Virus record (IMG/VR): IMGVR_UViG_2693429662_000023
Span: 1 to 8,042 of that record
Reading direction: 5' to 3' (one strand)
From: a virus
Lineage: Duplodnaviria; Heunggongvirae; Uroviricota; Caudoviricetes
Length of the DNA: 8,042 nucleotides
Under the pieces are notes generated by a model that worked only from the letters and a program-made list of their open reading frames with translations, was not told where the DNA came from and did not search any database. Position numbers and translations under genes: made by a program. Of the stretch, positions 1 to 8,042 are shown piece after piece; position 1 is the first letter of the stretch; every line of letters begins with the position of its first letter.

Positions 1-1242
1 ATGGCGAGAAAAACACACCCATTAACCACAGTGCAGATCAAAGCAGCCAGACCAGCGCAAAAGGAGTACACCCTGCAGGACGGCGGAGGGCTTTTTCTCC
101 TGGTCAAACCGTCTGGATCAAAACTCTGGAGATTTTCCTACTACCGACCATCGGACAAAAAAAGAATATTGCTGAGTTTTGGATCGCTTGAAGATGTTTC
201 CCTGGCTGATGTCAGAAAACGCCGTAGCGAGTACAGGACGTTAATCAGTGCCGGAACTGACCCGCAGGACCACGAGAGGCAAAAAAGAGAGACAGAGGCC
301 CGAAGACAAGGGAACACGTTCGAAAATGTGGCGGCGGCATGGTACCAGGTGAAAATCAGCCAGAATCTGGCCCCCAACACGATTAAAGACATCTGGCGTT
401 CGCTGGATAAATATGTATTCCCGTTCATCGGCAACACGCCAATAGATACCCTCACCGCCCGAAGGTTCGTTGAAGTGCTTACCCCCATCAAGGAGCGCGG
501 CAACCTGGAAACACTCAAGCGGGTTTTACAGCGCGTTAATGAGGTAATGGATTACGCCGCCAACAGTGGGCTGATTGATGCCAATCCGGCTATGAATGTG
601 CGTAAGGCGTTTCCCTCACCTGTAAAAAAACATATGCCAACAATCCGCCCCGAACAGCTGCCGGAGCTTATGCAGGCTTTATCAGTATCGGCAACAGAAC
701 GGCAGACCAGATTACTGATTGAATGGCAGTTACTGACCGTAACCCGTCCCGCCGAAGCGTCATCAACGCGGTGGGATGAAATCAACCTGGACGCGAAGCA
801 ATGGACGATACCTGCCGGACGTATGAAGATGCGCAGGGATCACGTTATCCCGCTTTCCGGTCAGGCTATGGCGGTGCTGGAGGCCATGAAACCAATCAGC
901 CACCACCGCAATTACGTTTTCCCAAGTCTGAAAGACCCACAGCAGCCGATGAACAGCCAGACAGCTAACGCAGCATTGCGGCGTATGGGATTCGCTGGCG
1001 TGCTGGTGTCTCATGGATTACGCGCCATATTCAGCACAGCAGCGAACGAGGAAGGATTCGAGCCGGACGTAATAGAGGCGGCACTTGCCCACGTCGACAC
1101 CAACGAAGTTAGACGGGCATACAACCGGAGCAACTACATAGAAAAACGCATCGTGCTGATGCGCTGGTGGGGCGAATTTGTCGAGGCTGCGGCGACGGGC
1201 GTAACCCTCGCCAGTGGTAAAAGGGGTATCCGAGCCGTGTAG
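1..1242 (+). CDS. int: Tyrosine site-specific integrase (P4-type phage integrase family)
   Basis: 413-aa ORF starting at nt 1 with ATG. C-terminal region carries SHGLRAIF (His-x-x-Arg) and RAYNRSNY (candidate catalytic Tyr) with spacing typical of tyrosine recombinases, plus a basic N-terminal arm-like region. Followed by an AlpA gene, as in P4-like satellites and PICIs. The att site and any tRNA would lie upstream of the window. Confidence 0.9.
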   Translation: MARKTHPLTTVQIKAARPAQKEYTLQDGGGLFLLVKPSGSKLWRFSYYRPSDKKRILLSFGSLEDVSLADVRKRRSEYRTLISAGTDPQDHERQKRETEARRQGNTFENVAAAWYQVKISQNLAPNTIKDIWRSLDKYVFPFIGNTPIDTLTARRFVEVLTPIKERGNLETLKRVLQRVNEVMDYAANSGLIDANPAMNVRKAFPSPVKKHMPTIRPEQLPELMQALSVSATERQTRLLIEWQLLTVTRPAEASSTRWDEINLDAKQWTIPAGRMKMRRDHVIPLSGQAMAVLEAMKPISHHRNYVFPSLKDPQQPMNSQTANAALRRMGFAGVLVSHGLRAIFSTAANEEGFEPDVIEAALAHVDTNEVRRAYNRSNYIEKRIVLMRWWGEFVEAAATGVTLASGKRGIRAV

Positions 1243-1289
1243 CTGTACAGAAAACCAGTAAAAACTACGAAAACCATGTAAAACCGTCG

Positions 1290-1295
1290 TATAAT
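1290..1295 (+). promoter_or_regulatory. Candidate sigma70 -10 hexamer (TATAAT) upstream of small ORF; no good -35
   Basis: Perfect TATAAT at 1290-1295 in the AT-rich int-alpA intergenic region. The -35 region is weak (gaaaac-like). Confidence 0.25.
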
Positions 1296-1319
1296 TGCAT
1301 CAAATTTAACGACAAGGCT

Positions 1320-1571
1320 GTGAAACATGAAACCGTTAAGATGCAAAAAAATATCAGATGCAATTGCGACGGGCTGCAACTGGCCCTGATGGTTCAGCAT
1401 GAATTTTGGTCAACCTACGATCCAGAGGACAGAACGACGGCCCCATCAAAAAAACAGGTAGTAGACTTTCTGGTATCCCGTGGCGCTTCCAGAAATCTGG
1501 CGGTAAGTATTGATAAGGTCGTACGTCCGGCATCTATGAAGATCGGAGGCAGGCCCAAAAAATGGCGGTAA
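1320..1571 (+). CDS. Hypothetical small protein (83 aa from GTG 1320; alternative starts ATG 1341 or ATG 1399)
   Basis: ORF ends at TAA 1569-1571, 10 nt before a strong intrinsic terminator. Basic C-terminus (KIGGRPKKWR) resembles an AT-hook. No convincing Shine-Dalgarno for any of the starts, so a non-coding transcript is also possible. Confidence 0.3.
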   Translation: MKHETVKMQKNIRCNCDGLQLALMVQHEFWSTYDPEDRTTAPSKKQVVDFLVSRGASRNLAVSIDKVVRPASMKIGGRPKKWR

Positions 1572-1581
1572 CAATCCTAGA

Positions 1582-1605
1582 AGCGGCAGAAATGCCGCTT
1601 TTTTT
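1582..1605 (+). terminator. Rho-independent terminator
   Basis: Stem AGCGGCA (1582-1588), loop GAAA, stem TGCCGCT (1593-1599), then T-run 1599-1605. Confidence 0.7.
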
Positions 1606-1720
1606 ATAATTCCATTTCAAATCATCAATATAAAAAACGGTGTATACCGTTTAAAAACGGTGGGAACTGTTTTTACCCATATCCGATGATTTACCGTATT
1701 TGTCACCGGAATACACCGGA
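1605..1720 (+). promoter_or_regulatory. alpA upstream control region with -10 like hexamer and operator-like repeats
   Basis: TATAAT at 1605-1610. Direct repeat AAAAACGGTG at 1633-1642 and 1653-1662. Near-palindrome CGGTGTATACCG at 1638-1649. Direct repeat CACCGGA at 1704-1710 and 1714-1720, which is an inverted relative of the GGTGTAT motif. Confidence 0.4.
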
Positions 1721-1738
1721 TTCACAAGGTAAATCACG

Positions 1739-1945
1739 ATGGAAGCAATCAGAAAAATTATCTTTCGCCAGGAAGTAAAAAAAATTATCCACATCAAGGC
1801 AGACAGCACGCTGCAAAGCATGATCAACGCCGGAGAATTTCCGCAAGGTTTTCGCGTTGGTTTACGCCGTCGCGGATGGTATGAGGATGATGTGTTGGCC
1901 TGGCAGAAAGAACGCGAACAGGAAGCACGCGGAACGGCTGCTTAA
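1739..1945 (+). CDS. alpA: AlpA-family transcriptional regulator (prophage CP4-57-type, excisionase-like HTH)
   Basis: 68-aa ORF with SD-like AAGGT 9 nt upstream. Sequence IIFRQEVKKIIHIKADSTLQSMINAGEFPQGFRVGLRRRGWYEDDVLAWQ matches the AlpA pattern (LR..EV...S.ST.Y.LI..G.FP.P..LG.R.VGW...EV..W). Its position directly after a P4-type integrase is typical. Confidence 0.85.
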   Translation: MEAIRKIIFRQEVKKIIHIKADSTLQSMINAGEFPQGFRVGLRRRGWYEDDVLAWQKEREQEARGTAA

Positions 1946-1971
1946 CGGGTATCACAGATATGACAAACACG

Positions 1972-2004
1972 AAAAAAGCGGCCCCGATATGGAGCCGCCT
2001 TTCT
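1972..2004. terminator. Candidate bidirectional terminator hairpin
   Basis: Stem GCGGC (1978-1982) pairs with GCCGC (1994-1998). It is flanked by A6 (1972-1977), which reads as T6 on the minus strand, and by CTTTCT (1999-2004) on the plus strand. Stronger as a terminator for the minus-strand transcript. Confidence 0.4.
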
Positions 2005-2093
2005 GAACAATTAACCCGCTGCGCCTTATGTGTATGTGATCCCAAACATAAGCACGGGGATGATAGCCGCTATCAGGCTGGTGGGCAATGCAA

Positions 2094-2270
2094 TCAGTCT
2101 GGTTCAGTTCGTTGCCATAACTGCGAAGCTCTCTCCTTTGATGAGTATTCTTTAAGGTACTTCTCAAGGGCAAAAGAACACGGCGCGAATCGTTCTGATT
2201 CATGCTCTTTCTTTCTGCGTCGTCTTTTTCGTGCAGGTGATGTTTTTTTGGTTGATTCTTCGTTGGTCAT
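2094..2270 (-). CDS. Hypothetical small basic protein (58 aa), in-frame continuation downstream of the RHH gene
   Basis: Minus-strand ATG at 2270 to TGA at 2096-2094, just under the 60-aa cutoff of the ORF track. Translation by hand: MTNEESTKKTSPARKRRRRKKEHESERFAPCSFALEKYLKEYSSKERASQLWQRTEPD. It is in the same frame as the RHH gene, separated by one TAA and 57 nt of open frame. SD is weak (AGG). Confidence 0.3.
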   Translation of the reverse strand: MTNEESTKKTSPARKRRRRKKEHESERFAPCSFALEKYLKEYSSKERASQLWQRTEPD

Positions 2271-2327
2271 TGTGTGCGCCTGTAAAGCAATGCGCCGTAG
2301 TACCTCACACCACGGCGCTGGTGATGG

Positions 2328-2507
2328 TTACTCCTGCTCTTTGGCCTTGCGGCGCTGGCGGCGTTTGATTTCGCCTTTAACGGCAGTAACTATAAATTGC
2401 GCTTTGCTTTCACCTTCATCTAAATTTTTTTCTAAGTCTGCAACAACATCATGCGGGAATCTGGCATTTAACTGTTGCGACTTATTATTTGTTGAACCTG
2501 TTGCCAT
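2328..2507 (-). CDS. Ribbon-helix-helix (Arc/CopG-like) DNA-binding protein, 59 aa
   Basis: Start chosen at ATG 2507 with GAGGA 7 nt upstream (minus strand). Product MATGSTNNKSQQLNARFPHDVVADLEKNLDEGESKAQFIVTAVKGEIKRRQRRKAKEQE has a beta-strand/helix/helix pattern typical of RHH repressors and antitoxins, then a basic tail. The 114-aa ORF in the track is an unsupported 5' extension. Confidence 0.6.
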   Translation of the reverse strand: MATGSTNNKSQQLNARFPHDVVADLEKNLDEGESKAQFIVTAVKGEIKRRQRRKAKEQE

Positions 2508-2528
2508 TACTGAATCCTCTCTAAGTTG

Positions 2529-2661
2529 GTGCGATTCAGTATACACAAAAAAATTCAGAGAAAAAGGCTTGAAGTGCGATTCACTTGCTGATAGGTTAAA
2601 AACAGATGGTGCGATGCACCAAATAACAACGCCCCGCAGTGCGGGAACACATACGGGGCGT
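2529..2661. promoter_or_regulatory. Divergent control region with three GTGCGAT(T/G)CA repeats and nested palindromes
   Basis: GTGCGATTCA at 2529-2538 and 2574-2583, GTGCGATGCA at 2609-2618. Two copies are palindromic: AAGTGcgatTCACTT (2572-2586) and GGTGCgatGCACC (2608-2620). Palindrome CCCGCAgTGCGGG at 2633-2645 is nested within ACGCCCCG/CGGGGCGT arms (2629-2661). Confidence 0.4.
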
Positions 2662-2690
2662 CTAACCAACAACGTAAACTAGGAGCCGTT

Positions 2691-2888
2691 ATGGTTGCCG
2701 TAAATCATATACCACACCTTGTACACACACAAACGGCCTTTGTGTGGCGTTTTCTGGCCCTGAGTGCCGGAGAATCTCAAATCATCCACGTAACCGCCTG
2801 GACGGAACGCGAAGCGCGTAGCCGTTGCCCGTCCGGTTGTGTTGCTGTATTCGCCGCCCGTATTCGTCAGGGGGGGGGCCATGCCTGA
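2691..2888 (+). CDS. Hypothetical protein (65 aa), possibly the N-terminal part of a frameshift-split gene
   Basis: ATG 2691 preceded by AGGAG (2681-2685) with a 5-nt spacer. Ends ...RIRQGGGHA at TGA 2886-2888, immediately after a G9 tract, and overlaps the next start (ATGCCTGA). Confidence 0.4.
   Translation: MVAVNHIPHLVHTQTAFVWRFLALSAGESQIIHVTAWTEREARSRCPSGCVAVFAARIRQGGGHA
2870..2878. repeat. G9 homopolymer tract at an ORF junction
   Basis: Nine consecutive G at 2870-2878, read directly from the sequence, in the context CAGGGGGGGGGCC. Confidence 0.95.
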
Positions 2889-3201
2889 TATGTCAAATTA
2901 CCAGTACCTGATTAATCCGCATTTTAACTGTGAGCATGATATTGCTAAAAAGGTTTATTCCGCTGCGGATGGGGCTACTGACAATATATCAATGGCTGTT
3001 GCGTCAATTGGTAGCCTGATGTGGCATGCGTCAGAAAATGAGGACTATGACGAAAAGGCCATGCGCATTGATATGGGTAATATTGGTTTGTTACTGGCAA
3101 TGCTTGGACATTTTGATATTTCGTTACGGTGCACCATTGAAAATGCCACAGATGCATTAAATGCTATAAAGAAAGCGAATACTGATTCAAATCGGGGATA
3201 A
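2881..3201 (+). CDS. Hypothetical acidic protein (106 aa)
   Basis: ATG 2881 directly after the G9 tract (alternative ATG 2890). Product MPDMSNYQYLINPHFNCEHD... has no motif I recognise. Sits in an operon-like arrangement with the flanking ORFs. Confidence 0.5.
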   Translation: MPDMSNYQYLINPHFNCEHDIAKKVYSAADGATDNISMAVASIGSLMWHASENEDYDEKAMRIDMGNIGLLLAMLGHFDISLRCTIENATDALNAIKKANTDSNRG

Positions 3202-3207
3202 ATAATC

Positions 3208-3507
3208 ATGAGAACATATTTATCTGGCTTGACTGCCAGCGGTTATGCACACCCCCAAATTATCCCCGGCGCTATTTATCTGGATAAGAACGGTAACAGA
3301 GTAACGGTAAAAGAACTGATGTTTGACCGTGTGTATTTTATTCGTGATGGCTATTCATTTCATAGTTCGCTGAACGTGGAGATCTTTATTAGCAGATTCA
3401 GGCGGGAAATCCCGCTTTCCAGAAAAAACCATGTGTCACGTGTGAATGTGGATAAAAAACTACAGGAACTGAAAAACATGATTGCCGCGTGGAGAGAGCA
3501 GAAATGA
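3208..3507 (+). CDS. Hypothetical basic protein (99 aa)
   Basis: ATG 3208 with GGGGA 9 nt upstream. Stop TGA 3505-3507 overlaps the primase ATG 3504 (ATGA overlap), suggesting translational coupling. Confidence 0.55.
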   Translation: MRTYLSGLTASGYAHPQIIPGAIYLDKNGNRVTVKELMFDRVYFIRDGYSFHSSLNVEIFISRFRREIPLSRKNHVSRVNVDKKLQELKNMIAAWREQK

Positions 3508-5321
3508 AAAAAGCGCCAAATTTAAAACACCAGCCGCGTGACAAAATGACGGAAGTCATCATTTTTGCGGGTAGTGATGCGTGGGCACATGCGAAGCAGT
3601 GGCAGGAACAGGACGGGCGACTGGCTGGCGATAACGTGCCTCCTGTCTGGCTTGGAGAGCAACAACTTGCCGAACTGGACAACCTGCAAATCGTACCGGA
3701 CGGACGCTATCGCGTGCGTCTCTATCAGGCGGGGTTATTGCGTCCGGGGCTTGTTAATACCATCGGGCAGAAACTGGCAGCGGCAGGTGTCAGGGATGCT
3801 GATTATTACTCTGAAGGAATGCACAGCCAGAAACGGGAGAACTGGCGCGAATATCTGGAACGTGAACGGGCAGAGCTGGCGGAAAAGAAAAAGGTAGTTG
3901 AACTGCCTGTAAAGAAAAAAGAGCGGGTAAAAGACGATAACGCTTCATCACTGGCGCTTAACCAGATGGGAGCAAGTCAACGCGGCGAAGTTCTCCTGGC
4001 ACATTATGGCGGTGAACTGGCGATTCATGCTGACTCTGACACTGTTCACCATTACAACGGCGTTGTATGGGAGCCAGTACAGGATAAAGAATTACAGCGA
4101 GCTATGGCACAGATTTTCATTGATGCGGAGATCAGCTATTCGCAGAACGCCATTAAATCGGCGGTCGATACCATGAAGTTAAGTTTGCCTGTAATGGGGA
4201 ATACAGCCCGTAACCTGATTGGATTCAGTAACGGGGTATTTGATACCAGAACAGGTAATTTTCGGGAGCATAACAAAAACGACTGGTTGTTAATTGCCAG
4301 TGAATTACCTTTCAGCCCACCAGCAGAGGGGGAAACGCTGGCAACACATGCGCCGAATTTCTGGAAGTGGTTACGCCGTTCGGTGGCTGAGAATGACCGC
4401 AAGGCGGATCGCGTACTGGCTGCATTATTCATGGTGCTGGCGAACCGGTACGACTGGCAGTTATTCATTGAGGTAACAGGTCCAGGGGGAAGTGGTAAAA
4501 GCGTGATGGCGGAGATTTGCACCATGCTGGCGGGTAAGGCCAACACAGTATCGGCAAGCATGAAGGCGCTGGAAGATGCAAGGGAACGCGCGTTAGTGGT
4601 TGGCTTTTCGCTGATTATCATGCCGGATATGACCCGCTACGCTGGTGATGGGGCAGGAATTAAGGCCATTACAGGCGGTGACAAGGTGGCAATTGATCCG
4701 AAACACAAAGCCCCCTACTCAACGCGTATTCCGGCAGTAGTGCTGGCGGTTAACAATAACGCCATGTCATTCAGTGACCGCAGCGGGGGGATCTCACGTC
4801 GTCGGGTGATATTCAATTTTTCGGAAGTTGTACCGGAGAACGAACGCGATCCAATGCTGGCGGAAAAAATAGAAGGTGAGCTGGCGGTAGTGATTCGCCA
4901 TCTGCTTACACGGTTTGCTGACCAGGACGAAGCCAGACGCCTGTTATATGAGCAGCAGAAATCTGAAGAAGCACTGGCGATAAAGCGAGAGGGGGATTCG
5001 CTGGTGGACTTCTGCGGCTATCTCATGGCGTCGGTAATGTGTGATGGCCTGTTAGTGGGTAATGCTGAAATTGTGCCATTCAGCCCACGCAGGTATCTCT
5101 ATCATGCCTATCTGGCTTATATGAGGGCACATGGGTTTGGTAAACCTGTAACACTGACGCGCTTCGGTAAAGATATGCCGGGGGCAATGGCGGAATATGG
5201 CAGGGAGTATATGAAACGGAAAACGAAGCACGGTTTGCGTTCAAACGTGACACTGACGGAGGAATCAGAAGACTGGATGCCATCATGTGTATCGGTCACT
5301 AATGACGATAGCAAAAATTAA
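3504..5321 (+). CDS. Replication protein: D5_N/primase-C-terminal-like domain fused to SF3 helicase (P4 alpha-like pri-rep)
   Basis: Start ATG 3504 with GGAGAG 7 nt upstream (the track's GTG 3489 is an alternative). Walker A motif GPGGSGKS encoded near 4480-4503. Upstream segment ...GFSNGVFDTRTGNFREH... resembles the D5_N region of P4-family primase/helicases. An iteron origin lies immediately downstream. Confidence 0.9.
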   Translation: MKKAPNLKHQPRDKMTEVIIFAGSDAWAHAKQWQEQDGRLAGDNVPPVWLGEQQLAELDNLQIVPDGRYRVRLYQAGLLRPGLVNTIGQKLAAAGVRDADYYSEGMHSQKRENWREYLERERAELAEKKKVVELPVKKKERVKDDNASSLALNQMGASQRGEVLLAHYGGELAIHADSDTVHHYNGVVWEPVQDKELQRAMAQIFIDAEISYSQNAIKSAVDTMKLSLPVMGNTARNLIGFSNGVFDTRTGNFREHNKNDWLLIASELPFSPPAEGETLATHAPNFWKWLRRSVAENDRKADRVLAALFMVLANRYDWQLFIEVTGPGGSGKSVMAEICTMLAGKANTVSASMKALEDARERALVVGFSLIIMPDMTRYAGDGAGIKAITGGDKVAIDPKHKAPYSTRIPAVVLAVNNNAMSFSDRSGGISRRRVIFNFSEVVPENERDPMLAEKIEGELAVVIRHLLTRFADQDEARRLLYEQQKSEEALAIKREGDSLVDFCGYLMASVMCDGLLVGNAEIVPFSPRRYLYHAYLAYMRAHGFGKPVTLTRFGKDMPGAMAEYGREYMKRKTKHGLRSNVTLTEESEDWMPSCVSVTNDDSKN

Positions 5322-5334
5322 ACTTATGGAATAA

Positions 5335-5563
5335 CTGTTCACCACTGTTCACCCTGTTATAAATATCTTTTATATCAGTATATTATAGGGTGAACAGTTA
5401 TTTATGAACTGTTCACCAAACTATTCACTGTTCACCTTTTTGATTGTTTATTGAGCTTCAAGGGTGAACAGTGGTGAACAGTTGGTGAATAGTTTTTGTG
5501 AAACTGTTCACCCCTTAACATTATGAATTAAAAGATAAAATATCAAAAGGTGAACAGGTGAAG
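5335..5563. repeat. Iteron-type replication origin
   Basis: Nine perfect copies of CTGTTCACC or its complement GGTGAACAG: 5335-5343, 5345-5353, 5389-5397, 5409-5417, 5428-5436, 5463-5471, 5473-5481, 5504-5512, 5549-5557. Degenerate copies include CTGTTAT (5354-5360), CTATTCAC (5421-5428) and GGTGAATAG (5484-5492). AT-rich spacers at 5358-5388 and 5515-5548 could be unwinding elements. Confidence 0.8.
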
Positions 5564-5654
5564 GGTTAAAACGCAAAAATTTTAATTTACTGCTGTGAGA
5601 TAAAGCCTATGACAGCGAAGCACATAAAAAAAATCACAATCGCACGCCCTTGAT

Positions 5655-5849
5655 TTGACGGAACACTGGTTAAGGGTGTCGATAAAAATCATCGACCGCA
5701 ACGCCGGGGAAGGATATGCGAAAGCACATCCCGAACTGATTAGCGCATTCATGACCACGACGGCGGCAAACTTTGCCACGCTGACAGAACGGGAGATTGC
5801 CGAAGCGGAACAGGTAACAACCATCAACGTTAAAAGCGCTGGAGAATAA
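5655..5849 (+). CDS. Hypothetical small ORF (64 aa from TTG; internal ATG at 5751) or non-coding transcript
   Basis: ORF ends TAA 5847-5849, 19 nt before a strong terminator. No usable SD for any in-frame start, so coding status is doubtful. Confidence 0.25.
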   Translation: MTEHWLRVSIKIIDRNAGEGYAKAHPELISAFMTTTAANFATLTEREIAEAEQVTTINVKSAGE

Positions 5850-5867
5850 CCGAAGTAGTGAACACAT

Positions 5868-5891
5868 AGCCGGAGCAATCCGGCTTTTTTT
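5868..5891 (+). terminator. Rho-independent terminator
   Basis: Stem AGCCGGA (5868-5874), loop GCAA, stem TCCGGCT (5879-5885), then T7 run 5885-5891. Confidence 0.7.
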
Positions 5892-5925
5892 CGATCTCGC
5901 ATATCTTAAAAAATGGTTGATTGAT

Positions 5926-5931
5926 TATAAT
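5926..5931 (+). promoter_or_regulatory. Candidate -10 hexamer (TATAAT) for the downstream two-gene operon
   Basis: Perfect TATAAT at 5926-5931 within TTGATTGATTATAAT, about 50 nt upstream of GTG 5980. The -35 is weak. Confidence 0.3.
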
Positions 5932-5979
5932 CTATCGAAAATACTGATTATTAGATGATAAGCATCAGGAGGAAACAAA

Positions 5980-6174
5980 GTGGAACAGATAAAGCAAAGC
6001 GCTACCGTGATGATTGATCACGAGATCCTAAACGAGCTTAAAAAACTTCAATTCGATGTTATTCGCCGGATGAATGAAGCTGGTATATACGGCAGAGCCG
6101 CCACGCCAACAGTAGGCCATCTTGCTCGCGTGCTGTTACGCGAACGCCTGGGCATTGCAACAGGTGAGGAATAA
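5980..6174 (+). CDS. Small putative DNA-binding protein (64 aa; RHH-like or HTH-like)
   Basis: GTG start with AGGAGG (5966-5971) 8 nt upstream. Product MEQIKQSATVMIDHEILNELKKLQFDVIRRMNEAGIYGRAATPTVGHLARVLLRERLGIATGEE has a strand-helix-helix pattern. The fold assignment is tentative. Confidence 0.55.
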   Translation: MEQIKQSATVMIDHEILNELKKLQFDVIRRMNEAGIYGRAATPTVGHLARVLLRERLGIATGEE

Positions 6175-6176
6175 CA

Positions 6177-6338
6177 ATGGCTATCACAGAACGCGAGGCA
6201 AGCATCATTAAAGCCATTGGCGAGGAAACAAGAGACACGATAGCGCCATTAATGGAAAAGATCGCAGAGCTTGAGAGACGAATAAACAAGCTGAGTGATG
6301 AAGTTGAAGGCCTGATCTCGTTACTCGGTGAGCAATGA
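6177..6338 (+). CDS. Small charged coiled-coil protein (53 aa)
   Basis: Not in the ORF track because it is under 60 aa. ATG 6177 sits 2 nt after the upstream stop, with GAGGA (6166-6170) 6 nt upstream. Translated by hand: MAITEREASIIKAIGEETRDTIAPLMEKIAELERRINKLSDEVEGLISLLGEQ, with a heptad-like hydrophobic pattern. Confidence 0.5.
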   Translation: MAITEREASIIKAIGEETRDTIAPLMEKIAELERRINKLSDEVEGLISLLGEQ

Positions 6339-6400
6339 CAGGGGGGGGGAGTGTTCCGGCCGGAAAGTCGATCGCCCTGGACACCGCCCCCCGTCTCATT
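6339..6400. promoter_or_regulatory. GC-rich palindromic element containing a second G9 tract
   Basis: G9 at 6341-6349 in the same CAGGGGGGGGG context as the tract at 2870. Perfect palindrome TTCCGGCCGGAA at 6354-6365 and CGATCG at 6369-6374. Arm GGGGGGGAGTGT is near-complementary to ACACCGCCCCCC (6381-6392). No T-run follows, so it is not a canonical intrinsic terminator. Confidence 0.4.
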
Positions 6401-6422
6401 CGTAGAAAATTTTGCTTTTCAA

Positions 6423-6445
6423 AAAAGTTACACGAAAAGTTACAC
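6423..6445 (+). repeat. Tandem direct repeat AAAAGTTACAC x2 (12-bp period) upstream of terS
   Basis: AAAAGTTACAC at 6423-6433 and 6435-6445, about 25 nt upstream of the terS ATG. Confidence 0.6.
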
Positions 6446-6467
6446 CCCCTCAAAACGAGGTTTTTGC

Positions 6468-6956
6468 ATGGCATTAACGACCAAAAAAAAGCGGTTTGCT
6501 GATGCGTTATCAAGGGGCGCAAATCCCACGGAAGCCGCTATACATGCGGGATACAGCGAAAAGACCGCAAGGGTCAAAGGCTGGCAGCTATCCAACGATC
6601 CTGAGGTGAAAAAGTATCTTAAGGCTGTAACTCCTGATGTAACTTTTCAGGTTACAAAACCGAAAAAAGTTACAAAGAAAGTTACCGAAAAAGTTACACC
6701 GGAACGGGCATCAATTAACACCATTGAGATGATGGATAACGGCCTACCCGACCCCATCAAAGCAATGGGCAGGATACTGATTGACAACATGGACACAGAT
6801 CCAAAACTGGCTTTAGATGCCGCGTTTAAGCTGGCCCAGTTCACCCACCGCAAGATCGGCAGCATTGGGAAAAAAGAGGTTAAAAAACTCAATGCCGCTA
6901 GTGTCTACTCAAATCGGTTCCCCATCCCTAAGCCACCAACAGACTTAAAACACTGA
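6468..6956 (+). CDS. terS: Terminase small subunit (P27/Terminase_2-like, N-terminal HTH)
   Basis: Start ATG 6468 chosen over the track's GTG 6351, which would translate the GC-rich palindrome. N-terminus MALTTKKKRFADALSRGANPTEAAIHAGYSEKTARVKGWQL matches the TerS HTH pattern (K.KRF...Y...N.T.AA..AGYS.KTA). Contains a KVTKKVTEKVT repeat insert. Confidence 0.75.
   Translation: MALTTKKKRFADALSRGANPTEAAIHAGYSEKTARVKGWQLSNDPEVKKYLKAVTPDVTFQVTKPKKVTKKVTEKVTPERASINTIEMMDNGLPDPIKAMGRILIDNMDTDPKLALDAAFKLAQFTHRKIGSIGKKEVKKLNAASVYSNRFPIPKPPTDLKH
6627..6697. repeat. 12-bp periodic GTAAC/GTTAC repeat array inside terS (candidate pac or TerS-binding site)
   Basis: GTAAC at 6627 and 6639. GTTAC at 6651, 6669, 6681 and 6693, with spacings of 12, 12, 18, 12 and 12 bp. 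Same core as the upstream AAAAGTTACAC repeats. Confidence 0.5.
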
Positions 6957-6967
6957 GGTAGCGAACT

Positions 6968-7129
6968 ATGAGCGAATACATCACAGACCCTATTGATGTA
7001 CTCACGGAAATCATGAACGACAAGCAGCAGTCGACCGAAATACGGTTACAGGCCGCCGCTGTTCTGATGCCATATTTTCACGAAACACTAAACCCGTGCT
7101 TCCAGGAGGAGGAAGAAGATGATCTGTAA
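6968..7129 (+). CDS. Small protein (53 aa) resembling the C-terminal segment of TerS, with acidic tail
   Basis: ATG 6968 with GAGG 9 nt upstream. Translated by hand: MSEYITDPIDVLTEIMNDKQQSTEIRLQAAAVLMPYFHETLNPCFQEEEEDDL. Aligns by eye with TerS residues DPIKAMGRILIDNMDTDPKLALDAAFKLAQFTH (shared DPI...I..D.......AA.....F.H). Overlaps the capsid gene start by 11 nt. Confidence 0.45.
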   Translation: MSEYITDPIDVLTEIMNDKQQSTEIRLQAAAVLMPYFHETLNPCFQEEEEDDL

Positions 7130-8042
7130 AAACATGAAAGGCGTGTCAGCAGTTCGCGCCGCCAGCGTGCTGGCATCGTGTAAATTTAGCCATGCTGACG
7201 CTATAGAGATGACGAAAAGAAATGATCCGGCAGTATCGTTATTTCTTGAAAAATCCGTAGTAGCAGGAATGAACACGGATAACATGCCGTCGCTGGTGGC
7301 AGAGCCGATAGTAAGAGAGCTTGGCGAGTATATTTTTTCGCAGTCTGTACCAGGCAAGCTAATCAGCAGCGCGCTAAATCTTCCTTTTGGCGCAAAATTG
7401 CAGTCAATATCAGGCAAGGGCAGTAAATGGCTTAAAGAAGCCGAAGAAATCCCTGTCAAAGAGGGAGAAGTAAACGAAAGTGCGCTAAAACTGTGCAAAC
7501 TTGGCGCTATTGTGATGCTGAATAACGAGCTAATCAAATTTAGCACCCCTGGTACAAATTCAGCGATCAGAGACTTGATCACATCGGAATCGGTGAAAGA
7601 AATAGATAAAAAATTTCTTTCCAGTGACCAGGAGGTGGCTGGCGTATCCCCTGAGGGCGTGCTTAATGGTGCTGATGAGGCCGAAAACTTCATAGAGCTT
7701 TTCAAAAAGCACATAGCGAACGGTAACACGCTTTCCACGTCGTCGCTAATCTTGCCCGTAGAAAACGCCTTACAGCTTACTGATGCTGAGTTCTGGCAGA
7801 TAGAGCTTTTGAGAATACCGGTAATTGTGAGCGAACAGGCGGATCGCATGATGCTGATAGACGCTCAAAAGCTGATTATTAACGTTGAAGCCACGGTTAT
7901 AACCCCAACTGATGAGGCGGTAATAAAAACCGAATCAGGGGCGGTTAGCCTTTTCCAGAATGACGCTACAGCGTTCAGGGCAATCACCTATTGCGGATGG
8001 CAAAAACTCGATAAGGCCGTCACCGTTCTGGCGAAAAGCTGA
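7119..8042 (+). CDS. Major capsid protein, HK97 fold (Phage_capsid family), 307 aa
   Basis: ATG 7119 preceded by AGGAGGAGGAAG. Internal motif EIDKKFLSSDQEVAGVSPEGVLNGA and C-terminal LFQNDATAFRAITYCGWQKLDKAVTVL match hallmark HK97-family capsid motifs (..ID.aFl.GdG...P.GlLN.. and ..F..D.tAfRa..R.......AfvvL). Stop TGA at 8040-8042 coincides with the window end. Confidence 0.7.
   Translation: MICKNMKGVSAVRAASVLASCKFSHADAIEMTKRNDPAVSLFLEKSVVAGMNTDNMPSLVAEPIVRELGEYIFSQSVPGKLISSALNLPFGAKLQSISGKGSKWLKEAEEIPVKEGEVNESALKLCKLGAIVMLNNELIKFSTPGTNSAIRDLITSESVKEIDKKFLSSDQEVAGVSPEGVLNGADEAENFIELFKKHIANGNTLSTSSLILPVENALQLTDAEFWQIELLRIPVIVSEQADRMMLIDAQKLIINVEATVITPTDEAVIKTESGAVSLFQNDATAFRAITYCGWQKLDKAVTVLAKS

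Follow-up and report, generated by a model that had tools for sequence, protein, structure and literature searches.

The stretch of viral DNA analyzed here, 8,042 nucleotides (nt) of the Caudoviricetes record IMGVR_UViG_2693429662_000023 in IMG/VR (positions 1 to 8,042; hereafter, the window), probably contains the full gene set of a classical, that is, non-capsid-forming, phage-inducible chromosomal island (PICI) of the Gram-negative type, in the form of a mosaic variant of the Escherichia coli islands EcCI11368.1 and EcCI11128. More tentatively, and with rather less than even confidence, we propose that the right end of this island encodes a mode of packaging takeover that is new for satellites of phages with HNH-dependent cos packaging. 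This mode would combine the cos core of the helper with private repeats and the island's own small terminase subunit (TerS), a protein corresponding to a TerS fragment that could disable the TerS ring of the helper, and a scaffold-less shell protein of the HK97 fold; the helpers would be Shiga toxin (Stx)-converting and related lambdoid prophages of Shiga-toxin-producing E. coli (STEC). As an object, the island is ordinary, namely a mosaic member of a PICI lineage that was catalogued in 2018.

The gene order of the window is that of Gram-negative PICIs. An integrase, an AlpA-like regulator, small genes, a primase/helicase, iterons, further small genes, TerS and an HK97-type capsid gene could each be located, as the first-pass annotation of the sequence had described them, and the int/alpA and packaging parts are 95–98% identical to those of EcCI11368.1, which bears out its designation of the element as a PICI-like satellite. 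The same annotation assigned the window to the capsid-forming subtype of these islands (cf-PICIs) and took it for a left arm, with terL, portal, protease and connector genes lying beyond its right end. The co-occurrence of TerS with an HK97-fold capsid gene is compatible with such an assignment, and int, alpA and rep are common to cf-PICIs and classical E. coli PICIs; nevertheless, we give it almost no credence. The window begins with the integrase start codon and ends with the stop codon of the capsid-like gene. In its closest E. coli match, O157:H7 strain NE 1092-2 (locus L001; 96.7% identity, 98% coverage), the island lies between tRNA-Pro and yejO, and the capsid homolog is the final island gene in eight of nine related E. 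coli loci (L001–L009), the exception being L001, where one extra annotated open reading frame (ORF) of 93 amino acids (aa) separates it from the attachment site attR. All nine loci have yejO 0.5–1 kb past the capsid gene, with attR between the two; six of these loci, fetched for the identical 307-aa capsid protein that is found in many assemblies, have this protein as the last island gene before yejO. ORF and family scans of the window, together with the nine loci, revealed no terL, portal, protease, connector, lysis or tail genes, and of the capsid-forming gene set only TerS and the capsid homolog are found here, without an HNH gene. Furthermore, proteobacterial cf-PICIs follow the order capsid-protease-portal-connectors, hnh-terS-terL and span ~15 kb, whereas here terS precedes the capsid gene in an element of ~8.9 kb. 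A capsid gene is not diagnostic of a cf-PICI either, being carried by 21 of the 29 reference classical Gram-negative PICIs (PMC10111431).

The capsid gene being the last one and attR following about 350 bp further on, the element measures ~8.9 kb, all of its genes lying within the window. This length was measured in a second relative (L002), from the tRNA-Pro 3′ end to its damaged copy, the limits of the element being taken from close relatives rather than from the window's own flanks. In the relatives, the island is flanked by tRNA-Pro(GGG), which lies downstream of yejM, on one side and by yejO on the other. The 17-nt 3′ end of tRNA-Pro(GGG) in L002, CTCTCGTGCCGACCAAA (2362–2378, attL), recurs with a 1-nt deletion 354 nt past the capsid stop codon (11278–11293, attR); a damaged tRNA fragment at attR has been reported for PICIs (PMC10111431), which fits this deletion. 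A second pair of repeats, TTTAGTTATACG, is found just inside each end of L002 (2507–2532 and 11192–11217), and the "att core" printed in 2018 for the PICIs of the yejM-luxR site is a close variant of it (PMC6092414). Because the 17-nt tRNA-Pro repeat lies outside the TTTAGTTATACG repeats at both ends, we read the latter as arm-type integrase sites and the former as the likelier crossover region; the 26-bp "att core" of the 2018 table was rejected as the crossover site on the same grounds. The yejM-luxR interval is a listed PICI site, occupied by EcCI11368.1 (8.5 kb) and EcCI11128 (9.3 kb) (Table S1 of PMC6092414). The flanking repeats and the tRNA target that the first-pass annotation proposed to look for are present in the relatives, which also have the small size (~8–12 kb), the terminal position of int and the att repeats at a dedicated site that are typical of PICIs. 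Scans of the window for tRNAs and Rfam families gave no matches. The phage database holds no near-identical DNA, its sole match being the primase region at 78% identity; thus, the island has not been deposited as a phage. In a metagenomic relative (L021, 207–2879), a further P4-type integrase and PICI-like genes come immediately after the gene for the capsid homolog, an arrangement that suggests two islands in tandem.

The case for packaging takeover starts from three adjacent genes on the plus strand. The first (6468..6956) encodes TerS, a 162-aa protein with an N-terminal helix-turn-helix (HTH) domain, which matches Terminase_2 (PF03592; E = 3.4e-10, 41.1 bits against a cut-off of 26.1) and, over 156 of its 162 positions, phrog_641 (E = 6.5e-43). 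It is 46% identical to the TerS of Stx phages, with the strongest similarity in the C-terminal half (residues 85–157); a search of PDB sequences with this protein returned only marginal HTH matches and no chain of Rpp, the EcCICFT073 protein discussed below. The second gene (6968..7129) encodes a mini-protein of 53 aa that is homologous to a segment of TerS and ends in an acidic tail. It matches positions 89–125 of phrog_641 (E = 3.5e-7), aligns with the helical TerS segment at residues ~89–129 (hhalign probability 93%, E = 3.3e-7) and is 39% identical to residues 94–126 of the TerS of Salmonella phage FSL SP-016 (E = 5e-8). BLASTP of the mini-protein found no match in the TerS of the island or of Stx phages; the homology emerged only in profile comparisons and with the FSL SP-016 protein. 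The mini-protein lacks the HTH, is conserved in distant relatives (L021 and L022) and is a candidate TerS-interacting factor. It may bind a TerS oligomer, in which case it would be functionally comparable to Rpp or to Ppi of SaPIs (pathogenicity islands of Staphylococcus aureus).

The third gene (7119..8042) encodes the 307-aa homolog of HK97-fold major capsid proteins, with a score of 28.7 bits for PF05065 (cut-off 24.2) and of 26.6 bits for TIGR01554, slightly under the cut-off of 27.5. An AlphaFold2 model built on a 27-sequence alignment (predicted local distance difference test score 84.7) was used in place of one built on six sequences, which reached a score of 51. In Foldseek, this model matches HK97-fold capsids (among them HK97, 80alpha/SaPI1 and the SaPIbov5 procapsid) with probability 1.0, whereas a PDB sequence search found nothing. 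The protein aligns to residues 291–629 of the 645-aa fusion of an S78 protease and a major capsid protein encoded by Stx phages (24% identity, E = 1e-20); it represents only the shell portion of that fusion, without the protease or the scaffold region. An exhaustive protein search collected 540 relatives of this protein, and the short capsid homologs, 307–332 aa in length, make up a family of their own. In L001 (19485–20453), the homolog is annotated with 322 aa as against 307 aa in the window, and the DNA alignment contains a 1-nt gap that may explain the longer ORF.

Conceivably, terS and the capsid gene could be functionless leftovers in a decayed, immobile remnant of a prophage or satellite. 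The phrog_1231 gene of the window is indeed frameshifted (see below), some accessory ORFs of the relatives are pseudogenes in RefSeq, and the helper is a putative one. We consider this distinctly unlikely, however, given the distribution and conservation of the island. Among 5426 complete E. coli genomes, 220 (~4%) have an intact packaging module, at 95–100% identity, always on the chromosome and mostly in STEC backgrounds, and the genes intact in those 220 genomes include the integrase and the replicase along with TerS, the mini-protein and the capsid homolog. The ratio of nonsynonymous to synonymous substitution rates (dN/dS) is low across the packaging module (0.12–0.28), being ~0.14, from few substitutions, for the capsid homolog. 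The island retains both of its att ends along with the arm sites, its module order persists in other contexts at 50% protein identity (L022), and the short capsid homologs form the separate family mentioned above.

Two further small genes precede this set in the packaging module. The first gene of the module (5980..6174, plus strand) encodes a 64-aa protein that is found in all relatives at 89% identity, with a dN/dS of 0.12 and no family match; by eye, it looks like a ribbon-helix-helix protein. The next (6177..6338, plus strand) encodes a 53-aa protein that looks, again by eye, helical or coiled-coil, is kept even in the 50%-diverged L022 and has only weak, non-specific family matches. The "small regulators" that the first-pass annotation placed here are real as conserved ORFs at 5980–6338, but no profile gives them a function.

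The connection to a specific class of helper phages comes in part from the DNA between these genes and terS. Over 88 nt, the non-coding segment at 6343–6430 shares 73% identity with the sequence between HNH and terS in phage Stx2a_WGPS2 (E = 2.6e-10), and over 42 nt it shares 95% with Salmonella phage FSL SP-016, whose capsid protein is only 25% identical to the island homolog and whose TerS is 34% identical in one alignment. A multiple alignment of island and phage sequences reveals a near-invariant core, CGATCGCyCyGGACACCGCCCCCCsTCTCA, within a candidate cos core at 6343..6420 that is shared with phages of the helper type and includes a run of G, CGATCGCCCTGGACACCGCCCCCCGTCTCA and AGAAAA, in this order; the predicted cos end region would lie inside GGACACCGCCCCCC/TCTCA. 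A database search with the block retrieved 78 phage records, all from the Stx-type lambdoid group and, where checked, all with the block at the HNH-terS position; in four annotated phage loci, it lies between HNH and terS. L022, whose capsid homolog has only 50% identity, retains a recognizable block in the same place. The deposited sequence of phage Lys8385Vzw (MT225100.1; L011/L012) opens inside the block, between GGACACCGCCCCCCCT and CTCACGCAGAGAAAA, and it is suggestive, although no proof, that this opening point is the physical end of the phage DNA.

Next to the block, the island carries six AAAGTTAC repeats (6424..6697; 0.26 expected), two of them upstream of terS and four inside it, of which three are direct and one is inverted; five relatives have exactly the same arrangement. 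In contrast, the cos-terS regions of five scanned phage loci contain no match to AAAGTTAC and have five copies of TGTTAAC instead. These cosB-like repeats are candidate island-specific binding sites of TerS. The same repeats would also accommodate a different scheme, in which the island is packaged by a SaPI-like headful (pac) mechanism, TerS reading AAAGTTAC as its pac site and the upstream block being a relic of a captured phage terS region. The TerS proteins of the Terminase_2 family include those of pac phages such as SF6, with which the weak PDB matches agree; repeats within terS are typical of pac sites; and the block may have been captured together with terS. However, conservation of the block exceeds that of the coding DNA beside it, as the FSL SP-016 alignment illustrates, it is kept in the 50%-diverged island, and in the matching phages it adjoins the HNH gene, a hallmark of HNH-dependent cos packaging. 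On balance, we regard headful packaging as unlikely and favor a cos-type signal.

With respect to the helper, the best phage matches of both TerS and the capsid homolog fall into one phage group, which comprises Stx1a-, Stx2c- and some Stx2-converting phages, PPompW prophages, BP-4795, 1717 and Salmonella phage FSL SP-016. In the annotated phages of this group, the gene order is HNH-terS-terL-protease/capsid-portal. Given these similarities, Stx-type lambdoid phages are likely to be the helpers of the island. In the E. coli genomes, the cos-like block occurs in 608; 21 of 22 sampled island carriers have 2–5 copies, whereas only 388 of 5206 island-free genomes have any, a pattern that fits co-residence of the island with helpers. 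If the island is mobilized by Stx phages and interferes with them, it would affect Stx phage output and gene transfer in enterohaemorrhagic E. coli; as a natural parasite of these phages, it could lower their yield or alter their transduction.

Under the proposed life cycle, a resident lambdoid phage of the type that combines HNH-cos packaging with a protease-capsid fusion (many Stx1a-, Stx2c- and Stx2-converting phages, BP-4795, 1717) would induce alpA, and excision of the island followed by replication from the iterons would ensue. The island TerS would then bind the AAAGTTAC repeats, with its phage-like C-terminal half recruiting the large terminase subunit (TerL) and the HNH nuclease of the helper; cleavage would occur at the cos core common to island and phage, and island DNA would enter helper-built heads that receive helper tails. 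As far as can be judged from sequence comparison, the island would depend on the helper TerL and HNH because the cos cleavage core is shared. The 53-aa TerS-fragment protein would probably bind a TerS ring, and may either inhibit the helper TerS or serve as an accessory to the island TerS. Finally, the capsid homolog could co-assemble with the helper capsid protein in the manner of Ccm of SaPIbov5, resulting in smaller heads or in disturbed assembly of helper heads.

This last step has to be weighed against the possibility that, in the same island, the capsid homolog neither builds nor resizes heads and instead either purely interferes with helper head assembly or is dispensable, which we consider a serious contender, if short of an even chance. 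The complete HK97 fold, the purifying selection and the invariable position next to TerS argue for a structural role, as does the example of SaPIbov5 Ccm, a capsid homolog of a satellite for which a structural role is established (PMC8569155); moreover, PmCI172, also equipped with a capsid homolog, makes small heads. On the other side, the protein lacks the protease and scaffold parts of its phage counterpart, and EcCICFT073 is packaged in full-size heads. A role in redirecting head size is uncertain because EcCICFT073 without its (unrelated, lambda E-type) capsid homolog still blocks normal lambda plaquing (PMC6092414, PMC6739421) and because PICI capsid genes have been reported to be dispensable for transfer (PMC10111431).

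These two reports also weigh against our main reading of the island and its life cycle, and several other considerations do so as well. An island of 8.9 kb is no obvious fraction of a helper head holding 50–60 kb. The co-occurrence of island and phage is confounded by lineage, most carriers being STEC. The limits of the element rest on relatives, none of which has exactly the module combination of the window. The AlpA-like protein scores 17.6 bits with the Pfam family Phage_AlpA, for which the gathering cut-off is 21. Induction, the identity of the helper, the position of cos cleavage, TerS binding and the effect on capsid size are all inferred from sequence.

The replication module consists of a 605-aa replicase and an adjacent origin. 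The replicase (3504..5321, plus strand) combines the P4-family primase C-terminal region with a D5-type superfamily 3 (SF3) helicase; it matches D5_N, DUF5906 and Pox_D5 as well as phrog_864 (E = 3e-192) and TIGR01613 (E = 3.4e-27), and is 48% identical to the primase of EcCICFT073. Of the first-pass label "primase/SF3 helicase", the second term holds: because profile searches detected no catalytic primase domain, only the SF3/D5 helicase part is supported. The origin (5333..5557; GC content 0.38) comprises iterons around AT-rich spacers, with 10 copies of CTGTTCACC in both orientations at 5335–5557 that form two oppositely oriented sets. The whole window contains 14 matches to this motif where 1.6 are expected, a number reached in 0 of 200 shuffles. 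An iteron origin 3′ of the initiator is the origin layout of Gram-negative PICIs (PMC6092414), and the possession of an initiator of its own with such an adjacent origin is a further PICI trait of the island.

Over its first 114 aa (3504–3845), the replicase shows 76% identity with the N-terminus of the RepA/AAA_25 helicase that EcCI11368.1 and EcCI11128 encode, so that a common N-domain is found on two otherwise unrelated replicase cores, always preceded by a DUF4222 gene. The exact 605-aa primase is recorded in 1060 blocks, including PICIs with other integrases and right ends (L023–L026). One of these right-end modules encodes a fusion of a ClpP protease and Phage_capsid_4 together with DUF1441, and another a lambda E-type capsid protein with a decoration protein and a Nu1-like protein; in each, the capsid homolog is paired with a TerS-like gene, and each corresponds to a different phage head type. 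Downstream of the origin, a small phrog_1231 gene (5655..5849, or 5610/5655–5849, plus strand; E = 3.2e-40) is N-terminally frameshifted, an A8 tract at 5626–5633, as against A7 in a 97%-identical relative, shifting the frame of its first ~15 codons; this could be an error of sequencing, slippage-prone variation or the mark of a pseudogene. Within this gene, a block of 150 nt (5688–5837) matches EcCICFT073 at 94% and EcCI11368.1 at 92% identity, with the values falling to ~50% in both flanks and no Rfam match. It represents a conserved junction common to PICIs with different replication and packaging modules, and may either mark a seam of recombination or serve a function of its own.

The left part of the window is devoted to integration and regulation. 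The integrase (1..1242, plus strand, 413 aa) is a tyrosine recombinase of the P4/CP4-57 type, with matches to Arm-DNA-bind_3, Phage_int_M and Phage_integrase (E = 1e-21 to 6e-29) and to NF007246 (550 bits); its target is the 3′ end of tRNA-Pro(GGG), which in the relatives lies 219 bp upstream of the gene. It is followed by four tandem AAAACCnnnn decamers just past the stop codon (1251–1290) and by a conserved 76-aa ORF, orf76 (1341..1571, plus strand), which is annotated in the RefSeq entries of relatives, is 100% identical in EcCI11368.1, has no family match and is followed by a terminator-like hairpin (1579–1602). Nested inverted repeats, CGGTGTATACCG and ACCGGAATACACCGG, are present upstream of alpA (1633–1720); together with the decamers, they are candidate regulator binding sites at which helper induction would act. 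The AlpA-like HTH regulator/excisionase (1739..1945, plus strand, 68 aa) matches phrog_66 (E = 5.5e-7), annotated as "excisionase and transcriptional regulator", and phrog_2790 (E = 3e-6). It is 97% identical to its counterpart in the same position in the published EcCI11368.1, and tblastn against the HTH (alpA-position) region of EcCICFT073 gives 43% identity over 30 aa (E = 3.6e-5); its size and its place beside int also agree with an alpA-type activator.

Two genes beyond alpA are transcribed leftward. One (2094..2270, minus strand) encodes a basic 58-aa protein that matches phrog_21027 (E = 5.4e-13) and is 74% identical to the product of a leftward EcCICFT073 gene; its AT skew is reversed, and a minus-strand terminator follows at 2004–1972. 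The other (2328..2507, minus strand) encodes a 59-aa YlcI/YnfO-family protein (NF041551, E = 1.5e-17; phrog_949, E = 2.5e-23) that looks ribbon-helix-helix-like by eye and occupies the same position in EcCICFT073. A plus-strand ORF of 240 aa (1960–2682), which some assemblies call as a gene and RefSeq lists as a pseudogene, is probably not a gene, and we rejected it: no family matches it, its composition is odd and its AT skew reversed, and it overlaps the two family-supported leftward genes with their terminators, of which it is most likely a shadow. Three rightward genes complete the region up to the replicase, namely those for an Icd-like protein (2691..2888, plus strand, 65 aa; NF033153, E = 5.8e-18; phrog_1743, "transcriptional repressor", E = 1.5e-22), a 106-aa protein of phrog_15327 (2881..3201, plus strand; E = 3e-71) and a 99-aa DUF4222 protein (3208..3507, plus strand; PF13973, E = 1.1e-16), the last being encoded directly upstream of the replicase in L002–L009, L018 and L023–L026 as well. 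Apart from the Icd-like, YlcI/YnfO and DUF4222 proteins, the small genes with a family assignment belong to several PHROGs lacking known function. The first-pass annotation had suspected accessory cargo among the small genes, but we recognized no defense or virulence cargo, and PADLOC found no defense family in ten small proteins.

Among known islands, EcCI11368.1 (E. coli O26:H11 strain 11368) and EcCI11128 (O111:H- strain 11128) are the closest counterparts, with the same integration site, right end, cos-like block and AAAGTTAC repeats; our literature searches found nothing on either beyond the 2018 table. At the DNA level, EcCI11368.1 is 97.9% identical to the window over positions 1–2320 and 95.1% over 5670–8042, and its proteins are 89–100% identical for int, orf76, alpA and the packaging module, whereas between these regions the genes of the accessory and replication parts are divergent. 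The integrase is 99.8% identical in EcCI11368.1 and 94.4% in EcCI11128, and the AlpA-like protein 97% and 90%, respectively; across the two islands, identity is 96% for TerS, 89–91% for the mini-protein and 97% for the capsid homolog. They differ in that both islands replicate by means of a RepA/AAA_25 helicase, whereas the window encodes a D5/P4-type primase-helicase with CTGTTCACC iterons; the accessory region is also swapped.

EcCICFT073, the E. coli PICI that has been studied by experiment, provides the counterpart for much of the left and middle parts. It shares int, alpA, the two leftward small genes including that of the YlcI/YnfO family, the Icd-like and DUF4222 genes, the primase, the origin and the phrog_1231 gene, along with a capsid homolog near the right end and a packaging logic that pairs a private specificity element with a cos cleavage site of the helper type. 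However, its integrase is only 24% identical to that of the window, and its att site differs. Moreover, EcCICFT073 has a lambda E-type capsid homolog with a D-type decoration protein and no TerS, relying instead on Rpp to retarget the helper TerS (PMC6092414, PMC6739421), whereas the window has a TerS of its own, of the Terminase_2 family, and a capsid homolog of the HK97/S78 type. No sequence similar to Rpp was found in the window, and the EcCICFT073 RppA position (a 144-aa ORF) has no counterpart there. The cf-PICIs, such as EcCIEDL933, share with the window the int-alpA-rep backbone, an HK97-type capsid gene, TerS and helpers of the HNH-dependent cos class (bioRxiv 10.1101/2022.09.08.507074), but they encode capsid, protease, portal, connectors, HNH, TerS and TerL in this order over ~15 kb and form their own heads. 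The resemblance to P4-like satellites is limited to the P4-family primase C-terminal domain and the P4-type integrase; psu, delta, sid, epsilon and cnr have no Pfam, PHROG or NCBIfam match in the window.

Functional parallels are also found among the staphylococcal islands, Ccm of SaPIbov5 being the nearest precedent for the capsid homolog. SaPIbov5 is likewise a satellite of HNH-cos phages, and its Ccm is a satellite homolog of the helper capsid protein with the HK97 fold (7rwz is among the Foldseek matches) that sits in pentamers and alters head shape (PMC8569155); the likeness to the window homolog is one of fold only, at 14–15% identity. SaPIbov5 employs the helper cos site with the helper TerS, whereas the island described here has its own TerS and distinct repeats. 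The pac-type SaPIs (TerS-S plus Ppi) similarly combine a TerS homolog of their own with the helper TerL and, perhaps, a small protein aimed at the helper TerS; here, however, the mini-protein is a TerS fragment without homology to Ppi, and the packaging signal is cos-like rather than pac-like. The arrangement of a cos core with a private TerS and the TerS-fragment protein were not found in the literature that we searched, including a search with the cos-core string. If the proposed takeover is correct, the pairing of an island TerS with the helper cos core would constitute a fourth strategy of packaging piracy, beside the copying of the helper cos site, the TerS-S/Ppi system and Rpp.

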